A stretch of DNA of 38,136 nt from Actinomycetota bacterium (GTDB lineage: Bacteria > Actinomycetota > Acidimicrobiia > IMCC26256 > VFJJ01): contig VFJJ01000115.1 in NCBI GenBank assembly GCA_009886115.1, forward strand, positions 1 to 38,136, given 5' to 3'. A model generated the notes under the pieces. The model made no database searches. It was given only the letters and a program-made list of their open reading frames with translations, and had not been told where the DNA came from. Of the stretch, positions 4,070 through 15,747 are shown piece after piece. The translations under genes and the position numbers were made by a program. The stretch's first letter is position 1. Every line of letters begins with the position of its first letter.

Positions 4070-4081
4070 CGCTGTGCCCGT

Positions 4082-4702
4082 TCACGCGCCAGGGGTGAAC
4101 TCGACCAGCCCCAGGACGCCCTCGCCGCCAGCCACCTTCTCCTCGCCGACGAGCCCGACGCCCGGTGCGTCGTACTTGTGCTCGATGGTGTCGGGCTCCA
4201 GCGGACTCCAGTCCTCGGTCTCCACCACGGCATCGAAGACGCCTGCGGGAACGGTCCTCGACTCGGTGACGCTCAGGATCTCGAACATGTCCTCGGCCTT
4301 GCCCTCGTAGTACTCCTGGCGGAATGCCGCACCAGCGCTCGGTTGGGCGGGCATCACGATCCCCGGCACCGCGCCGTCGACAGTCGAGATCCCCATCACC
4401 AGCTTGCGCTCCTCGAGCACGGTGACCTCGACGCGCTCGGTCTCGCCGTCGCTCTCACCGACGAGCACCCAACGGGACCCGGGTAGGAACGGCAGGTACG
4501 GGTTGTCGATGCGATCGACGAAGTTGGCCGGGTCGATGACGGGGGCGTAGACGCCGCCGTCGCCCGGATCGACGACGGGAGCTGCGTCTTGCGTGGACGA
4601 CGTCGAGTCGTCGTCGCCGCAACTCGTGAGCCCGGCAGCAGCGCCGATCGCGGCGAGTGTCACGAGCATGATCCGGGCGGAGAGGTTCGCTCTCGTTGAC
4701 AT
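4082..4702 (-). CDS. Uncharacterised lipoprotein, apparently with an in-frame internal deletion (possible pseudogene)
   Basis: AAGGAG SD before ATG 4702; lipobox LTSC; IDPANFVDRIDNPY, RQEYY..AED, PLEP..EHKY.APGVG motifs. Confidence 0.7.
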   Translation of the reverse strand: MSTRANLSARIMLVTLAAIGAAAGLTSCGDDDSTSSTQDAAPVVDPGDGGVYAPVIDPANFVDRIDNPYLPFLPGSRWVLVGESDGETERVEVTVLEERKLVMGISTVDGAVPGIVMPAQPSAGAAFRQEYYEGKAEDMFEILSVTESRTVPAGVFDAVVETEDWSPLEPDTIEHKYDAPGVGLVGEEKVAGGEGVLGLVEFTPGA

Positions 4703-4775
4703 GGCTGCTCCTTGGCGCAGGGTGAACGCCGGTGCCCGTGTGGTGGGTGTGATACCGGGTCGATGGTGCGCCGTA

Positions 4776-4797
4776 GCGCCTGAACGGCGCCTGAACG
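4776..4797. promoter_or_regulatory. Perfect 11-bp tandem direct repeat (GTTCA-N6-GTTCA on minus), OmpR/PhoB-family box-like
   Basis: GCGCCTGAACG x2 in the divergent intergenic region between lipoprotein and arsC. Confidence 0.45.
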
Positions 4798-4849
4798 TGT
4801 GCCGGACGGGGGTCGGATCGGCGGGGCTGGCCGGATAGTGTCTGCGACC

Positions 4850-5221
4850 ATGACGAGCACGAGCGGGTCGACACCGGAGCTGATCGTCTTCCACAACCCC
4901 GGCTGAGGTCAGTCGCGGGGTGTGGTCGACATCCTGAAAGAGCGGGGCATCGAGTTCGGTGTGGTCCAGTACCTGAAGGACGTCCCCGGACGTGAGGTCT
5001 ACGAGCGCATGCTCGATCTGCTGGCTGACCCGCCGGCCGATCTCGTCCGCAAGGACAAGCGCTTCGCTGAGCTGGGCCTGATCGCCGACGATTACACGAC
5101 CCGAGAGTCGGTCGTCGAGCTCCTGCTCGTCCACCCTGAGCTGATGCAGCGTCCCGTCATCTTCCGCGGCGACCGTGCTGTGCTGGCCCGTCCCTCCGAG
5201 AAGGTGCTCGAGCTGTTTTGA
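4850..5221 (+). CDS. arsC: Arsenate reductase, glutaredoxin-type ArsC family; candidate selenoprotein (Sec at TGA 4904-4906)
   Basis: Read-through gives MTSTSGSTPELIVFHNPG-U-GQSRGVVDIL, matching the ArsC HNPxCxxSR active site; also DLVR, HPELMQRPV, ARPSEKV; 123 aa; TAGTGT -10-like element 8 nt before ATG. Confidence 0.85.
4916..4936 (+). promoter_or_regulatory. Candidate bacterial SECIS hairpin of arsC
   Basis: CGGGGUGU-GGUCG-ACAUCCUG, 8-bp stem with two G-U pairs; loop starts with G after a 17-nt spacer from UGA. Confidence 0.7.
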
Positions 5222-5262
5222 TGTGACCCTCGGCGCTCGGGCCCGGCGTGGCCCGCCGTCGC

Positions 5263-5607
5263 TCAGCTGGGCTCGTCAGTTGCGGGACGGGGTCGTAGGT
5301 CGTCGTCGGGGAGGCAGGGCAGCCCCTCGACGTACGTGGCGAGCTCGGCCATGACGCGGGCGGAGCGGGTGTCGAAGATGGTGGCGCGCATCTCGCTGAA
5401 GGTTCCGTCGACGATGGCCGTGCGGCTGGCGTCGAGCTGCCCGCGGAGATACTCCCAGTCGTCCCGCAAAGCCACGGGGACGTTCGAGATGCTCCGCTCG
5501 AGCACCCGATCCGCGAGTGTCAGCGCATCGGCCTGAGCTTCGACGAGCTCGCCGGGGTCCGCCATCTGCTCGAGCGACCCTGTCCCGTCGAAGGCTCCGA
5601 GGGCCAC
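5263..5607 (-). CDS. Hypothetical helical protein (start uncertain, possibly 5'-truncated)
   Basis: Coding-like acidic/helical 3' part of ORF 5263..5898; the upstream part of that ORF is antisense to the NifU-like gene and looks non-coding. Confidence 0.4.
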   Translation of the reverse strand: MALGAFDGTGSLEQMADPGELVEAQADALTLADRVLERSISNVPVALRDDWEYLRGQLDASRTAIVDGTFSEMRATIFDTRSARVMAELATYVEGLPCLPDDDLRPRPATDEPS

Positions 5608-5772
5608 GAGCTGATGACGAGCGGGGCCCGACCTGCGCCGATGCAGCCCCCGGTGACGTCTCGGGCTGCGGTCGCCGATGTTGCCTATGATCGCCCCCCG
5701 GTCGGTGCGCAGCTCGGGCACGCGATTGCGAGCGCGTCGAATCGGCCCGAGGCAACCAGCGAGGAGTCGGCG

Positions 5773-6039
5773 ATGCCCAGGATCGAGGATCTCGGAACGC
5801 CCTACGAGGTGGCGTTCAACGACGTGCGGGCGCTGGTGCGGCCCGACGGAGCCGACTTCGAGGTCGTCGAAATCGACACCGAGACCGGCACGGTCCACCT
5901 CAAGCTGGTGCTCGAAGGCGCCAACTGCGAGGAGTGCGTGATGCCCGTCGACATCCTCCAGGCCATCGCCCGTGACGTGATGTCGCGCCAGGTCCCGTCG
6001 ATCCGGGCGGTCACCATCGACGATCCCCGGGCCGACTGA
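5773..6039 (+). CDS. NifU C-terminal-like (Nfu) small protein with CxxC
   Basis: GAGGAG SD; VRALVRPDGADFEVV..VHLKL..ANCEECVMP..IL, 88 aa. Confidence 0.8.
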   Translation: MPRIEDLGTPYEVAFNDVRALVRPDGADFEVVEIDTETGTVHLKLVLEGANCEECVMPVDILQAIARDVMSRQVPSIRAVTIDDPRAD

Positions 6040-6222
6040 CGGACCGGTCGGTCACCCGTCACCGGGGAGGCGCCTGCCGTCCGCTGCTCTCGTCCGCTGC
6101 TCCGCCGGTCTGTTGTCTGTGTGGTTGATGTTGTCAGTGTTGCTCATGACATGATCTGACGGTGTATGGTGGCGATGGCGGCGTGTGCCGTGTTCGGAGC
6201 GGACCGCCCGGAGGGGTGACGC

Positions 6223-6519
6223 GTGCACTCGAGCTTGAAGCTGAAATCGGTGCTGGTCTGGCTGATCATCGGATATGTCGGTTACCTCATCTGGAACCAG
6301 CCCGGCTTCTCGGGCGGCGACATCGGCACGTTCGTGGGCAAGACCTGGGGCCTGGCCGGAGATGTGCTCTCGAAGTTCGGTGACTTCATCGGCAACCTCA
6401 ACGAGTCGACCGACACCCCGTCGAACCCCACGATCGGATCGCCAGCGAGCGCCACGATCGCAACCACCATCACCACGCTCCAGGCGGCGATCTTCACGAC
6501 GACGACCCTGGTTCCGTAA
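6223..6519 (+). CDS. Small membrane protein with Thr-rich tail
   Basis: GGAGGGG SD then GTG; one TM (VLVWLIIGYVGYLIW), amphipathic helix, Thr-rich C-terminus. Confidence 0.7.
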   Translation: MHSSLKLKSVLVWLIIGYVGYLIWNQPGFSGGDIGTFVGKTWGLAGDVLSKFGDFIGNLNESTDTPSNPTIGSPASATIATTITTLQAAIFTTTTLVP

Positions 6520-6533
6520 CGGCCGGGACTCGG

Positions 6534-7160
6534 ATGCGTCCGACGCTGCGAGAGCCGGAGCTGTCAGGCAACCGGGACGGGCGCTTCGGGGCCCTGCTCG
6601 ACGACATCCTGCGGTTCTACGGATTCCAGACCCCCGACGAGATCGTCGACGGCCACCTCGCTGTCGGCGGCCAGCGTCCCGAGCGCCACATCCTCACCGA
6701 ACGCCCGAACCCGATCGGGTTGTTCATCAACCGTCGCTTCACGATCGCGTTTCTCGTCGGTCTCGTGCTGCTTCTCGGGGCCGGCCCCGGGACTCCGCGG
6801 CTCGTCGGCGCGCTGGTGATGGTCGCTCTCGCCCTGATCTGGACGTCCAAGTACGTGGCGCTGCACTACACGAGGTACGTGATCACCTCGCTCCGGGTGC
6901 TGCGGGTCTCGGGCGTCTTCGGGCGCAAGGCCGACTGGATCCCCTGGATGCGCGTCACCGAGGTCTCGTTCCATCAGAACGTGATCCATCGGCTCGTGCG
7001 GCTGGGCTCGATCCGCATCGACTCGGCGAACGACATCGACACGCTCAAGGAGCTCACCGACATCCGCAACCCGGGCGACTTCCACCGGCGCTTGGCCCAT
7101 GTGGTGAGCGGATTCCAGAAGCACTCCACGTTCGACCTCGACGCCGTGGTCGGCGACTAG
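6534..7160 (+). CDS. Bacterial PH-domain (bPH_2/DUF304-like) membrane protein
   Basis: Two TMs then YVITSLRVLRVSGVFGR..IP..RVTEVSFHQ..RL..GSIRIDSA. Confidence 0.82.
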   Translation: MRPTLREPELSGNRDGRFGALLDDILRFYGFQTPDEIVDGHLAVGGQRPERHILTERPNPIGLFINRRFTIAFLVGLVLLLGAGPGTPRLVGALVMVALALIWTSKYVALHYTRYVITSLRVLRVSGVFGRKADWIPWMRVTEVSFHQNVIHRLVRLGSIRIDSANDIDTLKELTDIRNPGDFHRRLAHVVSGFQKHSTFDLDAVVGD

Positions 7161-7171
7161 ATCGTGCCCGA

Positions 7172-7235
7172 CTTCCTCCGCAAATTTGCGCGGAAATGCG
7201 CTCGGGGTGCGCACTTCCGCGCAAATTTCGGGAAG
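7172..7235. repeat. Long intergenic palindrome (REP-like or terminator-like)
   Basis: AAATTTGCGCGGAAATGCGC (7182-7201) pairs with 7209-7228 with 1 mismatch, 7-nt loop; outer CTTCC/GGAAG. Confidence 0.8.
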
Positions 7236-7261
7236 GGTGGCTCGGCCGGTAGCGTGGGCCG

Positions 7262-7816
7262 ATGACTTGGCTTCCTGAGACCGTCGACGGCGACACCGAA
7301 CTCGACCGGGTGTTCGGGCTCCGTCCCGAGCTGTACGCCGAGACGCGAGCCTGGTACGGGCACATCTTCACGCCGCCCGTGTGCGACCCCGTGATCCTCG
7401 AGCTGGTGCGCCTGCGCGTGGCCGAGCTGCACCGCTGCGACTCGGAGCTGGCCATCCGCTACGAGGTGGCGCGATCGGCCGGGCTCGACGACGACAAGGC
7501 CGCGGCCGTGGCCCGCTGGCCCACCGATCCCCGGTTCAGCGAAGCCGAGCGGGCCTGCCTCGCCTTCGCCGAGGCGTTCGTGATCGACGTGCACTCGGTG
7601 ACCGACGCCGACACCGAGGCGGTGCGCCGTCATCTCAGCGATCCCGAGCTCATGGGCCTGTGCAACGCCCTGGCGTGCTACGACGGCTTCATGCGCTTGC
7701 GCATTCTGCTGGGTGTCGGCCCACCGGCGGGCGCTGGCGCCGGTGCCGCCTCCTCAGCCGTCGGCCGTCCGATCTTGGTCGCGACCCCCACGGCCGATGC
7801 CCACACGCTGTTCTGA
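7262..7816 (+). CDS. Carboxymuconolactone decarboxylase/AhpD-like protein (CxxE variant)
   Basis: ELVRLRVAELHRCDSE, FSEAERACLAFAE, VTDAD..VRRHLS; TAGCGT 6 nt before ATG (leaderless). Confidence 0.82.
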   Translation: MTWLPETVDGDTELDRVFGLRPELYAETRAWYGHIFTPPVCDPVILELVRLRVAELHRCDSELAIRYEVARSAGLDDDKAAAVARWPTDPRFSEAERACLAFAEAFVIDVHSVTDADTEAVRRHLSDPELMGLCNALACYDGFMRLRILLGVGPPAGAGAGAASSAVGRPILVATPTADAHTLF

Positions 7817-7829
7817 GCTACTCGTACCG

Positions 7830-7848
7830 GTATTCAATCTTTGACTAC
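7830..7848. promoter_or_regulatory. AT-rich operator-like inverted repeat GTATTCAA-TCT-TTGACTAC
   Basis: 8-bp arms with 1 mismatch, 22 nt upstream of the CMD selenoprotein ATG. Confidence 0.55.
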
Positions 7849-7870
7849 AGAGTGCCCGTCTGGAGAACCG

Positions 7871-8389
7871 ATGCCCCGTATCTCCCTCCCCGATGTCGAC
7901 AGCGACGATCCCGTCGCTTCGAGCCCGTTGGCCCATCAACCCCAGTTACTGTCCGACTTCATGACCGCGTACGGCACGTTGTGGAGCCACGGCGTGCTCG
8001 ATGGCGCGACCAAGGAGGTGGCTCGTCTCCGCAATGCGAGGGTCACCGACTGCGGTTTCTGAAGGAACGTGCGCTTCGCAGTTGCGAAGCATGAAGGCCT
8101 CACCGAGGACCTCGTCGCCCAGATCGACGACGGCTACGAGGACAGCACGCTTTCGCCCCGTCACAAGGCCGTGCTGCGGTTCTCCGACGCGTTCCTCCGT
8201 GATCCCCACGGGCTCTCGGAGTCGGCCCGAGCGGAGCTCCTCGAGCACTACAGCGCCGAGCAGATCGTCGAGCTCGCGGCGGGTCTGGCCATGTTCATGG
8301 GCACGTCGAAGATCGCCGTGGCCCTCGGCAACGCGCCCTCAGACATGCCCGTGATGGAGCTGCCGACCCCCGTCCGCCCATCGACCTGA
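7871..8389 (+). CDS. AhpD/CMD-family protein; candidate selenoprotein with CxxU (Sec at TGA 8060-8062)
   Basis: ORFs 7841..8062 and 8069..8389 are in frame; join reads KEVARLRNARVTD-C-G-F-U-RNVRF..GLTED..LSPRHKAVLRFSD..YSAEQIVEL; GGAG SD; 172 aa. Confidence 0.85.
8073..8090 (+). promoter_or_regulatory. Candidate bacterial SECIS hairpin of the CMD gene
   Basis: GCUUCGC-AGUU-GCGAAGC perfect 7-bp stem; G at loop position 2; 17-nt spacer from UGA. Confidence 0.75.
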
Positions 8390-8471
8390 GGGCTGCCGTG
8401 GGTGGCTAGCGTTGACCGTCGAGCCGCCCGGGCGCACCGGGCGGCCCTGGAAACCTCAGCTCGGAGGCGTC

Positions 8472-9935: not shown

Positions 9936-11114
9936 CTACAGGCGCTCGATGATGGTGACGTTGGCCTGGCCGCCGCCTTCGCACATCGTCTGGAGGCCGT
10001 AGCGGCCGCCCGTGCGCTCGAGCTCGCCGAGCATGGTGGTCATGAGCCGAACGCCGGTGGCGCCAAGGGGATGGCCGAGCGCGATGGCCCCGCCGTTGAT
10101 GTTCACCTTGGCCAGATCGGCGCCGGTCTCTTTCTGCCAGGCCAGCACGACCGAGGCGAAGGCCTCGTTGATCTCGATGGCGTCCATCTGGTCGAGGGTC
10201 ATGCCGCTCTTCTTGAGCGCGTAGGCCGTCGCCGGGATGGGCGCGGTGAGCATGTAGATCGGGTCGTCGGCCCGCACGCTGATGTGGTGGATGCGGGCCC
10301 GCGGCTTCCACCCGTAACGCTTCACGGCATCCTCCGACGCGATCAGCATCGCCGAGGCGGCGTCGGAGATCTGGCTCGACACCGCCGCGGTGAGCCGGCC
10401 CCCTTCCAGCAGCGTCGGGAGCTTGGCCATCTTCTCGAGCGTCGTGTCGCCGCGGATGCCCTCGTCGCGGGCGTGGACGTGTTCGGTGCCGTCGGCCAGC
10501 GTCACGGTCATGGGCACGATCTCGCGCTCGAACCGGCCCTCTGCGGTGGCCCGCGCGGCCCGCTGGTGCGACTCGAGAGCGAAGCGCTCCATGTCCTCGC
10601 GGGAGATGTCCCACTTCTCGGCGATCATCTCCGCTCCCCGGAACTGCGACACCTCGCCGCTGCCGTAGCGCGCCACCCAGCCGGTGGAGCCGGTGAACGG
10701 ATCGGTGAAGCCGAACTGCTCGGCGACGAGCATCGCCGAGGAGATCGGGATGGCGCTCATGTTCTGGCATCCGCCGGCCACGATGAGGTCGCTCGTTCCG
10801 CTCAGCACCGCCTGGGCGCCGAAGTGCACCGCCTGCTGCGACGACCCGCACTGGCGGTCGACGGTGACCCCGGGCACCTCCTGCGGCAGCCCGGCGGCCA
10901 GCCAGCACGTCCGGCCGATGTCGCCGGCCTGGGGCCCGATGTTGTCGAGCGTGCCCCACACCACGTCGTCGACCTCGATCGGATCGACGCCCGTCCGCTC
11001 GACGAGCGCCGTGAGGATGTGCGCCCCGAGGTCGGCCGGATGCACCCGGGCCAGGCTCCCGCCCCGCTTGCCCACGCCCGTCCGGCACGTGTCGATGATG
11101 TAGGCCTCGGCCAT
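9936..11114 (-). CDS. fadA6: Acetyl-CoA C-acyltransferase (thiolase) of HIP catabolism
   Basis: VTVDRQCGSSQQ, IPISSAM..EQFGF, SQFRG.E.IAEKW, NEAFA, GHPLGATG, MCEGGG.ANVTIIERL as in FadA6; GGAGG SD. Confidence 0.88.
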   Translation of the reverse strand: MAEAYIIDTCRTGVGKRGGSLARVHPADLGAHILTALVERTGVDPIEVDDVVWGTLDNIGPQAGDIGRTCWLAAGLPQEVPGVTVDRQCGSSQQAVHFGAQAVLSGTSDLIVAGGCQNMSAIPISSAMLVAEQFGFTDPFTGSTGWVARYGSGEVSQFRGAEMIAEKWDISREDMERFALESHQRAARATAEGRFEREIVPMTVTLADGTEHVHARDEGIRGDTTLEKMAKLPTLLEGGRLTAAVSSQISDAASAMLIASEDAVKRYGWKPRARIHHISVRADDPIYMLTAPIPATAYALKKSGMTLDQMDAIEINEAFASVVLAWQKETGADLAKVNINGGAIALGHPLGATGVRLMTTMLGELERTGGRYGLQTMCEGGGQANVTIIERL

Positions 11115-13652: not shown

Positions 13653-14894
13653 TCAGCGGGGCTCGCGGGGGAGGCCGAGGACCCCTTCGCCGAGCACGTT
13701 GCGTTGGATCTCGGAGCTGCCGGCGTAGATGGTGTGGGCCCTGTCGTAGAGGAACGCGGTGAGGTTGCGGGCCACGTCGGGACTGGTATCGGCTGAGCCG
13801 CCGTACACCTGGCCGCCGATGCCGGCGATCGTCATCGAGAGCTCGGAGAGGTGGCGGTGCCATTGGCTCCAGTAGAGCTTACCGATGCTGCTCGCCGGAC
13901 CGGCCGCGCCCGACGCTGCCGCGGCCGAGAGCACCCGGAGGTTGTTGTAGCGCATGATCTCGAGGCCCACGTACGAGCGGGCGAGCTCCTGGCGCACGAC
14001 AGCGTCGTCGGCTTTCCCGCAGCGTTGCGCCGCCGTCAGCACTCCCTGGTACGTGCGGGCGTAGCCGAGCTGCTGGCCCAGCGTCGAGGCGCCCCGCTCG
14101 AAGTCGAGCGTGCCCATGGCGACCTTCCAGCCGCCGTTCACCTCGCCGACGATGTTTTCGGCGGCCGTGCGAGCGCCGTCGAAGAACACCTCGTTGAACT
14201 CCTCGCCGCCGCTCATCTGGGTGAGGGGGCGGACGGTGATCCCGGGCTGGCGCATGGGTACGAGGAGGTACGAGATGCCCCGGTGCTTGGTGGGCGCATC
14301 GGGATCGGTGCGGCACACGACGAAGCACCAGTCGGAGTGCTGCCCGTAGCTCGTCCACACCTTCTGCCCGTTGATGACCCACTCGCCGCCATCAGCGCCG
14401 TCGCCGCCTCCGGCGTCAGCACCACCGTCGCCGCCGGGGTCGAGGACGGCCCGGGTCTGCACGTTGGCCAGGTCGCTACCGGCGTCGGGCTCGGAGTAGC
14501 CCTGGCACCACAGCTCCTCCACACTCAGGATCTTGGGGAGGAAGCGGGCCTGTTGCGCGGGCGTTCCGAAGGCGATGAGCGTGGGGCCGAGCAGCGTCTC
14601 GCCCATGTTGGGCAAGCGGTTCTTGGCCTCCGAGGCCGCGTACTCCATGTGGAAGACGACCTGCTGGGTGAGCGTGGCGCCCCGTCCGCCGAACTCGGCC
14701 GGCCAGGACAGGCCGATCCAGCCGCCGTTGGCCAGCTCGCGCTCCCAGCCCACCTCCACGTCGAACGGCACCTCGTCGGTGCCCGGCCCGCCCTGGCCCT
14801 TCAAGCCGGCGAAGGGCCCGCGCACGTGCTCGTGCAGCCACGTGCGCACCTCGTCGCGGAACTCGGCGTCTTGGGGTGTGAGGGTGAGCTCCAT
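13653..14894 (-). CDS. fadE30: Acyl-CoA dehydrogenase IpdE1/FadE30 (HIP catabolism)
   Basis: FA.LKG.GGPG, GE.LLGPTLIAFGT, ELWCQGYSEP.AGSDLA, FERG.STLGQQ, RA.TIY.GS.EIQRN..LGLPRE; context of ipd genes. Confidence 0.82.
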   Translation of the reverse strand: MELTLTPQDAEFRDEVRTWLHEHVRGPFAGLKGQGGPGTDEVPFDVEVGWERELANGGWIGLSWPAEFGGRGATLTQQVVFHMEYAASEAKNRLPNMGETLLGPTLIAFGTPAQQARFLPKILSVEELWCQGYSEPDAGSDLANVQTRAVLDPGGDGGADAGGGDGADGGEWVINGQKVWTSYGQHSDWCFVVCRTDPDAPTKHRGISYLLVPMRQPGITVRPLTQMSGGEEFNEVFFDGARTAAENIVGEVNGGWKVAMGTLDFERGASTLGQQLGYARTYQGVLTAAQRCGKADDAVVRQELARSYVGLEIMRYNNLRVLSAAAASGAAGPASSIGKLYWSQWHRHLSELSMTIAGIGGQVYGGSADTSPDVARNLTAFLYDRAHTIYAGSSEIQRNVLGEGVLGLPREPR

Positions 14895-14906
14895 GGGTTC
14901 CCTCCG

Positions 14907-14954
14907 CAACTGTCAGCGTGGCGGGCCGGATACGGCCCGCCACGCTGACAGTTG
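14907..14954. repeat. REP-like palindrome, copy 2 (inverted relative to copy 1)
   Basis: Perfect 22-bp arms CAACTGTCAGCGTGGCGGGCCG with loop GATA (reverse complement of the copy 1 loop TATC). Confidence 0.9.
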
Positions 14955-14967
14955 GAGTGTTTTCTCG

Positions 14968-15747
14968 CTAGGGGTGTTGCGACGACACCGAGACGACCTC
15001 GCCGGCCATGAAACAGGCGAGATCCGACGCCAGGAACACGATCACGTTGGCGACCTCCCAGGGCTCGGCAGCCCGCTTCATCACCTCACGCTCCGAAAGG
15101 TCGGCGAGCAACTCGTCGCTCGTGACCTTGGCGAGAAAGGGGTGCATGGCGATCGACGGCGACACGGCATTGACCCGGATCCCGTGCGGCGCACCTTCCA
15201 CCGCCGAGCAGCGGGTGAGGGCCATCACCCCGGCCTTGGCCGCGGCGTAATGGCATTGGCCCTCCTGGGCCCGCCATCCGACCACCGAGGCGTTGTTGAC
15301 GATGGCGCCCGTCCCCCTGGGGATCATGTGGCGCAAGGCCGCGCGGGTGCAACGCATCGTGCCGGTGAGGGTGATGCCCAGCACGGCGTTCCACTGGTCG
15401 TCGGTCATGTCGACGAGGTTCACGGTGCCGCCGAGGCCGGCGTTGTTCACCAGCACGTCGAGCCCGCCGAAACCCGCGGCGTCGGCTGCGCCAACCGCGA
15501 ACTCGATCATCCGTTGCACGTCGTCCTCGACCGTGACGTCGCAGGGGATCGCCGGAACGTCGCCGAGCGCGGCGGCCGACTCGGCGAGGCGGCGCTCGTG
15601 CTTGTCGGAGATGATCACGAAGGCCCCCTCCTCCTGGCAGCGCTTGGCCGTGGCGAAGCCGATGCCGGTACCGGCCGCCGCGGTGACGAGCACCGTCTTG
15701 CCGGACAGGAGGTTGCGACCCTCGGGGTACGGGGGGACGGTCGTCAT
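14968..15747 (-). CDS. ipdF: SDR oxidoreductase IpdF (Rv3559c-like)
   Basis: LL.GKTVLVTAAAGTGIG, SDKHERRL, NNASV.GWRAQ..Q.HYAAAKAG, GEVVSVSSQH; ATGA coupling with ipdC. Confidence 0.88.
   Translation of the reverse strand: MTTVPPYPEGRNLLSGKTVLVTAAAGTGIGFATAKRCQEEGAFVIISDKHERRLAESAAALGDVPAIPCDVTVEDDVQRMIEFAVGAADAAGFGGLDVLVNNAGLGGTVNLVDMTDDQWNAVLGITLTGTMRCTRAALRHMIPRGTGAIVNNASVVGWRAQEGQCHYAAAKAGVMALTRCSAVEGAPHGIRVNAVSPSIAMHPFLAKVTSDELLADLSEREVMKRAAEPWEVANVIVFLASDLACFMAGEVVSVSSQHP

Follow-up and report, generated by a model that had tools for sequence, protein, structure and literature searches.

Probable selenocysteine codons in an ArsC-family gene and a CMD-family gene of an uncultured actinobacterial lineage, and the candidate SECIS hairpins that follow them

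Two genes with an in-frame TGA codon

The present analysis concerns two genes of thiol-redox families, each of which contains an in-frame TGA codon that is probably read as selenocysteine (Sec, U). They are located on contig VFJJ01000115.1 (assembly GCA_009886115.1) of an Actinomycetota bacterium of the class Acidimicrobiia. The stretch analysed, referred to hereafter as the window, comprises 38,136 nucleotides (nt) with a G+C content of 69.8%. The first gene encodes an ArsC-like protein and the second an AhpD-like protein of the CMD family. In both genes, the TGA is followed at 17 nt by a hairpin resembling a bacterial selenocysteine insertion sequence (SECIS), and the ArsC gene exhibits a second hairpin further downstream. 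The two ArsC hairpins are designated proximal and distal. The features are the following, all on the plus strand:

4850..5221, plus strand: predicted ArsC-family selenoprotein gene, motif HNPG-U-GQS, 123 aa; ATG at 4850, stop TGA at 5219-5221, internal TGA read as U
4904..4906, plus strand: putative Sec codon U19 of the ArsC-like gene, an in-frame TGA at the catalytic Cys column
4916..4936, plus strand: proximal ArsC hairpin, stem 4916-4923/4929-4936 of 8 bp (two G-U pairs), loop GGUCG at 4924-4928, folding free energy (dG) -11.1 kcal/mol
4947..4962, plus strand: distal ArsC hairpin, GCAUCG-AGUU-CGGUGU, 6 bp, tetraloop at 4953-4956, 46 nt after the UGA, dG -6.1
7871..8389, plus strand: predicted AhpD-like / CMD-family selenoprotein gene, motif C-G-F-U, 172 aa; ATG at 7871, stop TGA at 8387-8389, internal TGA read as U
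8060..8062, plus strand: putative Sec codon U64 of the CMD gene, a TGA at the second position of the CxxC redox motif
8073..8090, plus strand: SECIS candidate of the CMD gene, stem GCUUCGC/GCGAAGC at 8073-8079/8084-8090 of 7 bp, loop AGUU at 8080-8083, dG -12.0

We consider it likely that both TGAs are Sec codons in known thiol-redox families, that the 17-nt hairpin of the CMD gene is its SECIS, and that the ArsC gene carries SECIS-type hairpins in tandem.

With regard to family membership, the product of the ArsC gene matches the Pfam family ArsC (PF03960) with an E-value of 7.6e-11 and a score of 42.6 bits (cut-off 24). Its score against TIGR00014, 86.5 bits, is under the equivalog cut-off of 106.05, and an activity as arsenate reductase is therefore not established. 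The product of the CMD gene matches the Pfam family CMD (PF02627; E=8.6e-7, 29.3 bits, cut-off 23). Against TIGR01926 it scores 47 bits, under the cut-off of 81.8, and three '(seleno)protein' NCBIfam models are matched weakly, each with a score under its own cut-off. As these scores remain under the curated cut-offs, we regard it as a member of the family and as the equivalog of no named subfamily.

Both TGA codons fall on conserved cysteine columns

The alignment columns corresponding to the two TGAs were scored on the best 120 of 1512 ArsC matches and on the best 120 of 449 CMD matches. In the ArsC set, the TGA corresponds to the cysteine of the motif HNPxCxxSR, which is present in 105 of the 106 full-length homologues and replaced by a leucine in one; the remaining 14 matches are gene calls of 98-103 aa which start just past the TGA column. 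The leucine-containing homologue, P0092, exhibits the motif HNPG-L-GQARG, in a context otherwise like that of the TGA forms; in the source, its leucine may go back to a stop codon that was recoded or mistranslated. In the CMD set, a cysteine occupies both CxxC positions in 119/119 full-length homologues, the last match being a 106-aa truncation.

The nearest relative at the DNA level, L001, is a metagenome-assembled genome (MAG) of an uncultured member of the Actinomycetes, syntenic with the window over seven aligned stretches of 80-93% nucleotide identity. Both TGAs are present in L001, and the reading frames on either side of each are retained, with changes that are mostly synonymous. In the CMD gene, 14 synonymous and 1 non-synonymous codon differences are observed before the TGA (63 codons), and 12 synonymous and 2 non-synonymous after it (110 codons). 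The 106 codons that follow the TGA in the ArsC gene show 29 synonymous and 10 non-synonymous differences. From these codon comparisons, each TGA is flanked on either side by sequence under purifying selection.

The ArsC family was also surveyed in a genome-collection scan, which provided 80 loci: 45 with TGA at the position in question, 31 with TGC, and 4 unresolved by motif. The context of the TGA forms is always HNPG-U-G, with the exception of YNPG-U-G in L056. Their labels include Binatia, Myxococcota/'delta proteobacteria', Methylomirabilota, Acidimicrobiia and others, although some of the MAG labels look unreliable. L056 itself, an Acidimicrobiia MAG (10028 onward), contains a divergent TGA-form ArsC with the motif YYNPG-U-GTARG and a 9-bp distal AGUU hairpin. 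For the CMD gene, conservation of the TGA at the DNA level is observed in L001, the sole orthologue read, and fifteen truncated CMD proteins (70-109 aa) fit further TGA forms, some of them being perhaps contig-end fragments.

The identification of both TGAs as Sec codons rather than nonsense mutations is thus supported by sequence comparison. A first-pass annotation of this DNA had considered two independent Cys-to-TGA nonsense mutations unlikely, a view that is strengthened by the cysteine columns, by the retention of both codons in L001 and by the occurrence of TGA in 45/80 ArsC loci. A change of the genetic code was rejected, as TGA ends 25/29 genes examined and the terminal stop of each of the two genes is itself a TGA.

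Hairpins located 17 nt after both TGA codons

In the ArsC gene, the proximal stem is preceded by a spacer of 9 nt (4907-4915), and 17 nt (4907-4923) separate the UGA from the loop. In the CMD gene, the spacer is 10 nt long (8063-8072) and the distance from UGA to loop is likewise 17 nt (8063-8079). In both hairpins, a G-U is located at positions 22-23, the U of UGA being position 1. The first-pass annotation had reported this identical distance, together with stems of 7-8 bp starting 9-10 nt after the UGA and the loops GGUCG and AGUU, and its description proved accurate in each respect. The proximal loop, GGUCG, contains GGUC, the loop sequence of the SECIS of Escherichia coli fdhF.

A strict pattern, in which a stem of 7-8 bp without mismatches closes a loop of 4-5 nt that lies 17 nt from the TGA, was derived post hoc from both sites. 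Of the 838 TGA trinucleotides that the window contains in all frames of its two strands, 2 are followed by this pattern, and these are exactly the two Cys-aligned ones. A generic pattern, modelled on the published consensus, requires at least 5 bp in the stem, a loop of 3-9 nt whose first letters are [N]G[G/U], a distance of 16-37 nt from the TGA and a dG <= -7.5; it is found after 54/838 TGAs (6.4%). The first-pass annotation would have abandoned its proposal if similar hairpins were equally frequent after true TGA stops; this is not the case, as the generic hairpin follows 2/25 of these stops, one of them the stop of the ArsC gene, and 2/2 of the Cys-aligned TGAs. The rarity of the two hairpins lies in their position-specific geometry, not in their folding energy.

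The CMD hairpin is the same in L001, where the 48 nt after the TGA are identical to those of the window. The proximal ArsC hairpin is restricted to the window and L001 among 32 unique TGA-form sequences, with a stem of 7 bp in L001, and the other 30/32 unique TGA-form ArsC genes exhibit no consensus-type hairpin at 16-37 nt.

According to the consensus for bacterial SECIS elements, the stem has 4-16 bp and the loop 3-9 nt, a G is found among the first two loop nucleotides, usually with a G or U after it, the distance from the UGA is 16-37 nt and the minimum free energy is at most -7.5; some bacterial elements fall outside this model (PMC13188914). Both 17-nt hairpins fit all constraints of the consensus used by Zhang and Gladyshev in bSECISearch (loop 4-5 nt, stem 7-8 bp, -11.1 and -12.0). 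The SECIS of E. coli fdhF has an upper stem-loop at nt 15-31, 11 nt after the UGA, with a bulged U17 and the loop nucleotides G23 and U24 (PMC8659212). The two 17-nt hairpins resemble it in standing directly behind the UGA and in having a small apical loop that exposes a G-U at nearly the same distance (22-23 here, 23-24 there). In contrast, all three stems of the window are unbroken and lack a bulged U, the spacer of the 17-nt hairpins is 9-10 nt instead of 11, and the loop of the CMD hairpin is AGUU. The first-pass annotation had taken the shared geometry to define a lineage-specific minimal SECIS, a claim that is not supported, as this geometry lies inside the general bacterial consensus and one nucleotide from that of E. 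coli fdhF.

A distal hairpin accompanies the putative Sec codon across the ArsC family

The 60 nt after the UGA were aligned for the TGA-form ArsC genes (28 sequences unique in this region, from the 45 TGA forms then known, L056 excluded). The conserved element in this alignment is GGCGUCG-AGUU-CGACGU, with its loop 46 nt after the UGA, which corresponds to the distal hairpin of the window. It is the sole consensus helix predicted by RNAalifold, with 99.4% of cells paired. The window and L068 exhibit G-C to A-U double changes in this stem, the compensation in the window employing the rare codon GGT, and the stem is broken in L001 by an A.C mismatch (dG -3.3). Taken alone, the distal hairpin has a dG of -8.0 kcal/mol in other members of the family, compared to -6.1 in the window. 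It fits the consensus rules for the loop (4 nt, AGUU) and the stem (6 bp), but not the distance of 16-37 nt.

The distal hairpin distinguishes the TGA forms from the Cys forms. An NGUN tetraloop on a stem of at least 5 bp is present at this site in 45/46 TGA forms (the window counted) and in 1/31 Cys forms, or in 37/38 against 1/31 when unique sequences are counted (Fisher p = 4e-19, a value inflated by the relatedness of the sequences). The stem is present in many Cys forms too, because it encodes G-V-D-x-D-V, but their loops are ACCA or AGCA; the G-U loop accompanies the TGA. At the third codon position, the entropy is 0-0.18 bit over codons 43-57, compared to 0.6-1.6 bit in most flanking codons. 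The hairpin codons of the TGA forms are fixed (GTC 35/35, GAG 37/37, TTC 37/37, GAC 35/36), whereas at neighbouring sites the codons of these amino acids are variable or favour A/T (GAT 24/29, TTT 21/25). These frozen third positions reflect selection on the RNA, tied to the Sec codon. In the window, hairpins with an AGUU tetraloop and a stem of at least 5 bp number three on both strands, including the distal ArsC hairpin and the CMD hairpin.

A folded spacer that would draw the hairpin nearer specifically in the TGA forms was considered. The exterior unpaired nucleotides number 7.0 in TGA forms and 7.1 in Cys forms, which is no difference, and the spacer dG differs slightly (-14.2 vs -11.5). 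This candidate was rejected, as it does not distinguish the two forms.

Several individual loci can be mentioned in connection with the distal site. In the Cys-form ArsC genes of L027 (after 8272; region 10001-10400) and L070 (after 6854), a distal AGUU is found on a 3-bp stem, and in that of L072 (after 660) a distal GGUU loop on a 6-bp stem; these loops look like SECIS remnants that would have followed a Sec-to-Cys change. The TGA form of L078 (3262-3321) has the distal loop CGUG (V-A-C-D for V-E-F-D), in which the G-U is kept at loop positions 2-3. The locus of L068 which carries a TGA-form ArsC also contains, on the minus strand at 14784-15434, a peroxiredoxin-like (Prx-like) AhpC-TSA gene (E=3.8e-30) with a TGA at 15180-15182 in the motif W-U-P-Y-C. 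Downstream of this TGA, the RNA can fold into a 7-bp hairpin with the loop CUGCA (-9.7) or into a 5-bp hairpin with the loop AGUU 16 nt after the UGA (-7.9); this case is ambiguous and was not used.

Which hairpin serves the ArsC gene of the window

In a quick tree of the ArsC family, whose deep forks are unresolved, the ArsC of the window belongs to a clade of 15 rows with a support of 99% in the Shimodaira-Hasegawa-like approximate likelihood ratio test (SH-aLRT). The residues R67, R101 and R114, which we take to be the arginine triad of the ArsC of plasmid R773, are invariant within this clade. Of its truncated orthologues, 9/13 encode Asp, not Glu, at the codon of the distal loop. As Asp is encoded by GAY, the G of the distal loop would be replaced by C or U in these orthologues, so that no G-loop SECIS would be left there and another element would have to serve.

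The proximal hairpin is favoured by its canonical spacing, identical to that of the CMD gene, by its stronger stem and by its conservation in L001, where the distal stem is broken. The distal hairpin is favoured by its conservation throughout the family, by a tetraloop like that of the CMD gene and by the compensated stem of the window. The distal hairpin is probably the SECIS of the ArsC family outside the clade of the window, which would put that SECIS past the consensus limit of 37 nt, and its distribution leads us to regard it as ancestral in the ArsC selenoprotein family. Within the clade, we lean towards the proximal hairpin as the working SECIS, the distal one being redundant or decaying. 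A more tentative scenario is that a distal SECIS, used across phyla at a fixed 46 nt with a folded spacer, is being replaced: the clade would have gained a canonical hairpin inside the spacer, and the window would show the SECIS in the course of its move from the distal to the proximal site, with both copies intact.

The mechanism would be that of the established bacterial pathway, by analogy with which SelB, carrying both GTP and Sec-tRNA(Sec), would bind the loop of a hairpin with an exposed G-U just 3' of the UGA and deliver Sec once the ribosome arrives at this codon. In the ArsC protein, which is of the glutaredoxin type, Sec would stand in place of the nucleophilic Cys (UxxS), and in the CMD protein in place of the second Cys of the CxxC motif, giving CxxU. 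The 7-bp AGUU hairpin located 17 nt after the UGA would be the element recruiting SelB in the CMD gene. The equal 17-nt spacing probably reflects a fixed geometry of SelB and the ribosome common to bacteria, not a peculiarity of the lineage, and equal spacing would thus be expected in two genes of one organism. The shared geometry may pair a true SECIS, in the CMD gene, with a clade-specific hairpin in the ArsC gene.

Several observations weigh against this interpretation. None of the genes selA, selB, selC and selD is found in the 38-kb window, and ARAGORN detects no tRNA, and no tRNA-Sec, in the window or in L001 (20 kb). At gathering thresholds, Rfam gives no match over the whole window. 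The folding stability of the two sites is ordinary (z -0.76 and -0.81, 47-nt stretches vs shuffles), and the 48-nt folds of the TGA and Cys forms of ArsC are equal (-16.7 vs -16.3 kcal/mol). A generic SECIS-like hairpin is also present in 10/31 unique Cys-form ArsC genes, and the stop TGA of the ArsC gene itself is followed, 22 nt on, by the hairpin CGGGCC-CGGCGU-GGCCCG (stop and hairpin within 5219-5260; -11.1 kcal/mol), which agrees with the generic consensus and may be a terminator stem; matches to the consensus are cheap and prone to false positives in G+C-rich DNA. Neither the proximal ArsC hairpin nor the CMD hairpin has covariation support, a single relative being available at the DNA level, and for the CMD hairpin this is because that relative is identical there. 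With regard to the distal hairpin, its 46 nt are beyond the range of 16-37 nt and its dG in the window, -6.1, is weaker than -7.5. That the clade has lost the distal loop is deduced at the protein level only.

Alternative explanations

An alternative, which we regard as rather unlikely, is that the ArsC gene uses only its distal AGUU hairpin, as other members of the family seem to do. The proximal hairpin would then be a local spacer helix compacting the 40-nt gap, its 17-nt spacing would be coincidental, and the two genes would share a tetraloop, not a geometry. This would account for the single RNAalifold helix over the 28 unique sequences, for the separation of TGA from Cys forms (45/46 vs 1/31), for the lack of a consensus-type hairpin at 16-37 nt in 30/32 unique TGA forms, for the pairing preserved in the window via a compensatory A-U pair, and for an AGUU tetraloop common to the ArsC and CMD hairpins, which are two of only three such hairpins in the window. 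However, the distance of 46 nt exceeds the consensus range, and the compaction of the spacer, with 7.0 and 7.1 unpaired nt, is alike in TGA and Cys forms. The broken distal stem of L001 and the Asp at the loop codon in 9/13 clade orthologues, which removes the loop G, are likewise difficult to reconcile with a distal SECIS in this clade, and no further TGA of the window exhibits the strict geometry of the proximal hairpin.

The proposal of the first-pass annotation, in which a lineage-specific minimal SECIS (17 nt, 7-8 bp, loop of 4-5 nt) would serve both genes in a selenoprotein-rich organism, is improbable. The geometry is real, unique among the TGAs of the window and kept in L001, but its parameters are within the bacterial consensus and one nucleotide off those of E. 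coli fdhF. As for the number of selenoproteins, the window was scanned for in-frame TGAs flanked on either side by coding-like frames; the TGA at 8060 was recovered and no third candidate emerged, the upstream filter of the scan having also lost the known TGA at 4904. The two genes are, moreover, linked in L001, so that two per 38 kb is hardly informative on the genome, and a preprint reports FdhA as the one selenoprotein of studied actinobacteria such as mycobacteria (bioRxiv 10.64898/2026.03.03.709296). Far less probable still is the explanation that both are pseudogenes or truncated genes, with TGAs that are real stops and hairpins that arose by chance in G+C-rich DNA. The database fragments of 99 aa and 106 aa, which begin just past each TGA, and the frequency of generic hairpins in the DNA of the window would agree with it. 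In contrast, the TGA of each gene coincides with the column of the catalytic Cys, the upstream frames are conserved with mostly synonymous change, and the TGA of ArsC is found in 45 loci of several phyla, where it is accompanied by a TGA-specific conserved hairpin.

Relation to known selenoproteins

Both families have been known as selenoproteins since 2005, and the genes of the window are unannotated members with standard SECIS geometry. In the Sargasso Sea study, 14 arsenate reductase sequences with UxxS, 27 AhpD-like sequences with CxxU and 4 CMD-domain sequences with CxxU are reported (PMC1088965). Arsenate reductase (TIGR00014), AhpD-like (TIGR01926) and CMD (PF02627) selenoprotein families also appear in a 2026 review (PMC13188914). 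The ArsC product of the window has in common with the arsenate reductase selenoproteins an ArsC fold, a Sec in place of the catalytic Cys and the motif U-G-Q-S; it differs in that its gene is actinobacterial and is cut to 99 aa by public gene calls. The CMD product shares with the AhpD-like and CMD selenoproteins the CMD fold and the motif C-x-x-U, with Sec where the second Cys would be.

Genomic context and neighbouring features

The ArsC and CMD genes with Sec codons are neighbours in L001 too. In a default blastn comparison with L001, positions 4073-5633 of the window are unaligned, yet L001 has the ArsC gene. Longest-contig values of 4682 and 19904 nt are listed for truncated ArsC and CMD forms alike, a hint that the pair lies on the same contigs in other members of the clade. 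Being linked in a conserved local group, the two genes are not independent samples and say little on the number of selenoproteins in the genome.

The other features of the locus are the following:

4085-4702, minus strand: open reading frame (ORF) of 206 aa, divergent from the ArsC gene, with an AAGGAG box 6 nt ahead of its ATG
7179-7230: palindromic hairpin separating a bPH-domain gene from the first CMD gene, probably a terminator
7262-7816, plus strand: tandem CMD paralogue, directly upstream of the Sec-containing CMD gene

The 206-aa ORF has no match in Pfam or NCBIfam. A longer ORF at 4082-5134 was examined as a possible minus-strand gene beneath the ArsC gene and rejected: it matches no family, and the minus-strand gene is probably a shorter one that begins at 4702, outside the ArsC gene. 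The CMD paralogue (PF02627, E=2.2e-9) possesses a single Cys (LHRCDSE), without CxxC or TGA, and weakly matches a 'YciW-related (seleno)protein' model. When Rfam was searched at E <= 10 over 4700-8400, the intergenic palindrome gave the sole hits, which are weak matches to microRNA models on both strands.

Significance

Public gene predictions systematically start after the UGA in both families (P0006-P0061, 99-103 aa, for ArsC; P0190 and P0245-P0269, 70-109 aa, for CMD). As a result, the public calls of both selenoproteins lose the active-site motif, and the pair of the window is reduced to fragments of 99 aa and 106 aa. With regard to the organism, ArsC-like and AhpD-like selenoproteins would occur together in an uncultured actinomycete lineage; in well-studied actinobacteria, the mycobacteria for example, FdhA is reported as the only selenoprotein (bioRxiv 10.64898/2026.03.03.709296).

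The coexistence, in the ArsC gene of the window, of a conserved distal hairpin with a proximal one is the point worth following up. We found no description of a distal ArsC hairpin in the literature searched, and its TGA-specific occurrence across phyla is presented as new here, with the reservation that the predicted-SECIS figures of PMC1088965 may already show one. If the distal hairpin works, gene finders that look for a SECIS at 16-37 nt only would select an incorrect element in the ArsC family or overlook the family. With a hairpin at 46 nt in nearly all its TGA-form members and one at 17 nt in a single clade, the ArsC family would constitute a natural test of the maximal distance between a SECIS and its UGA.

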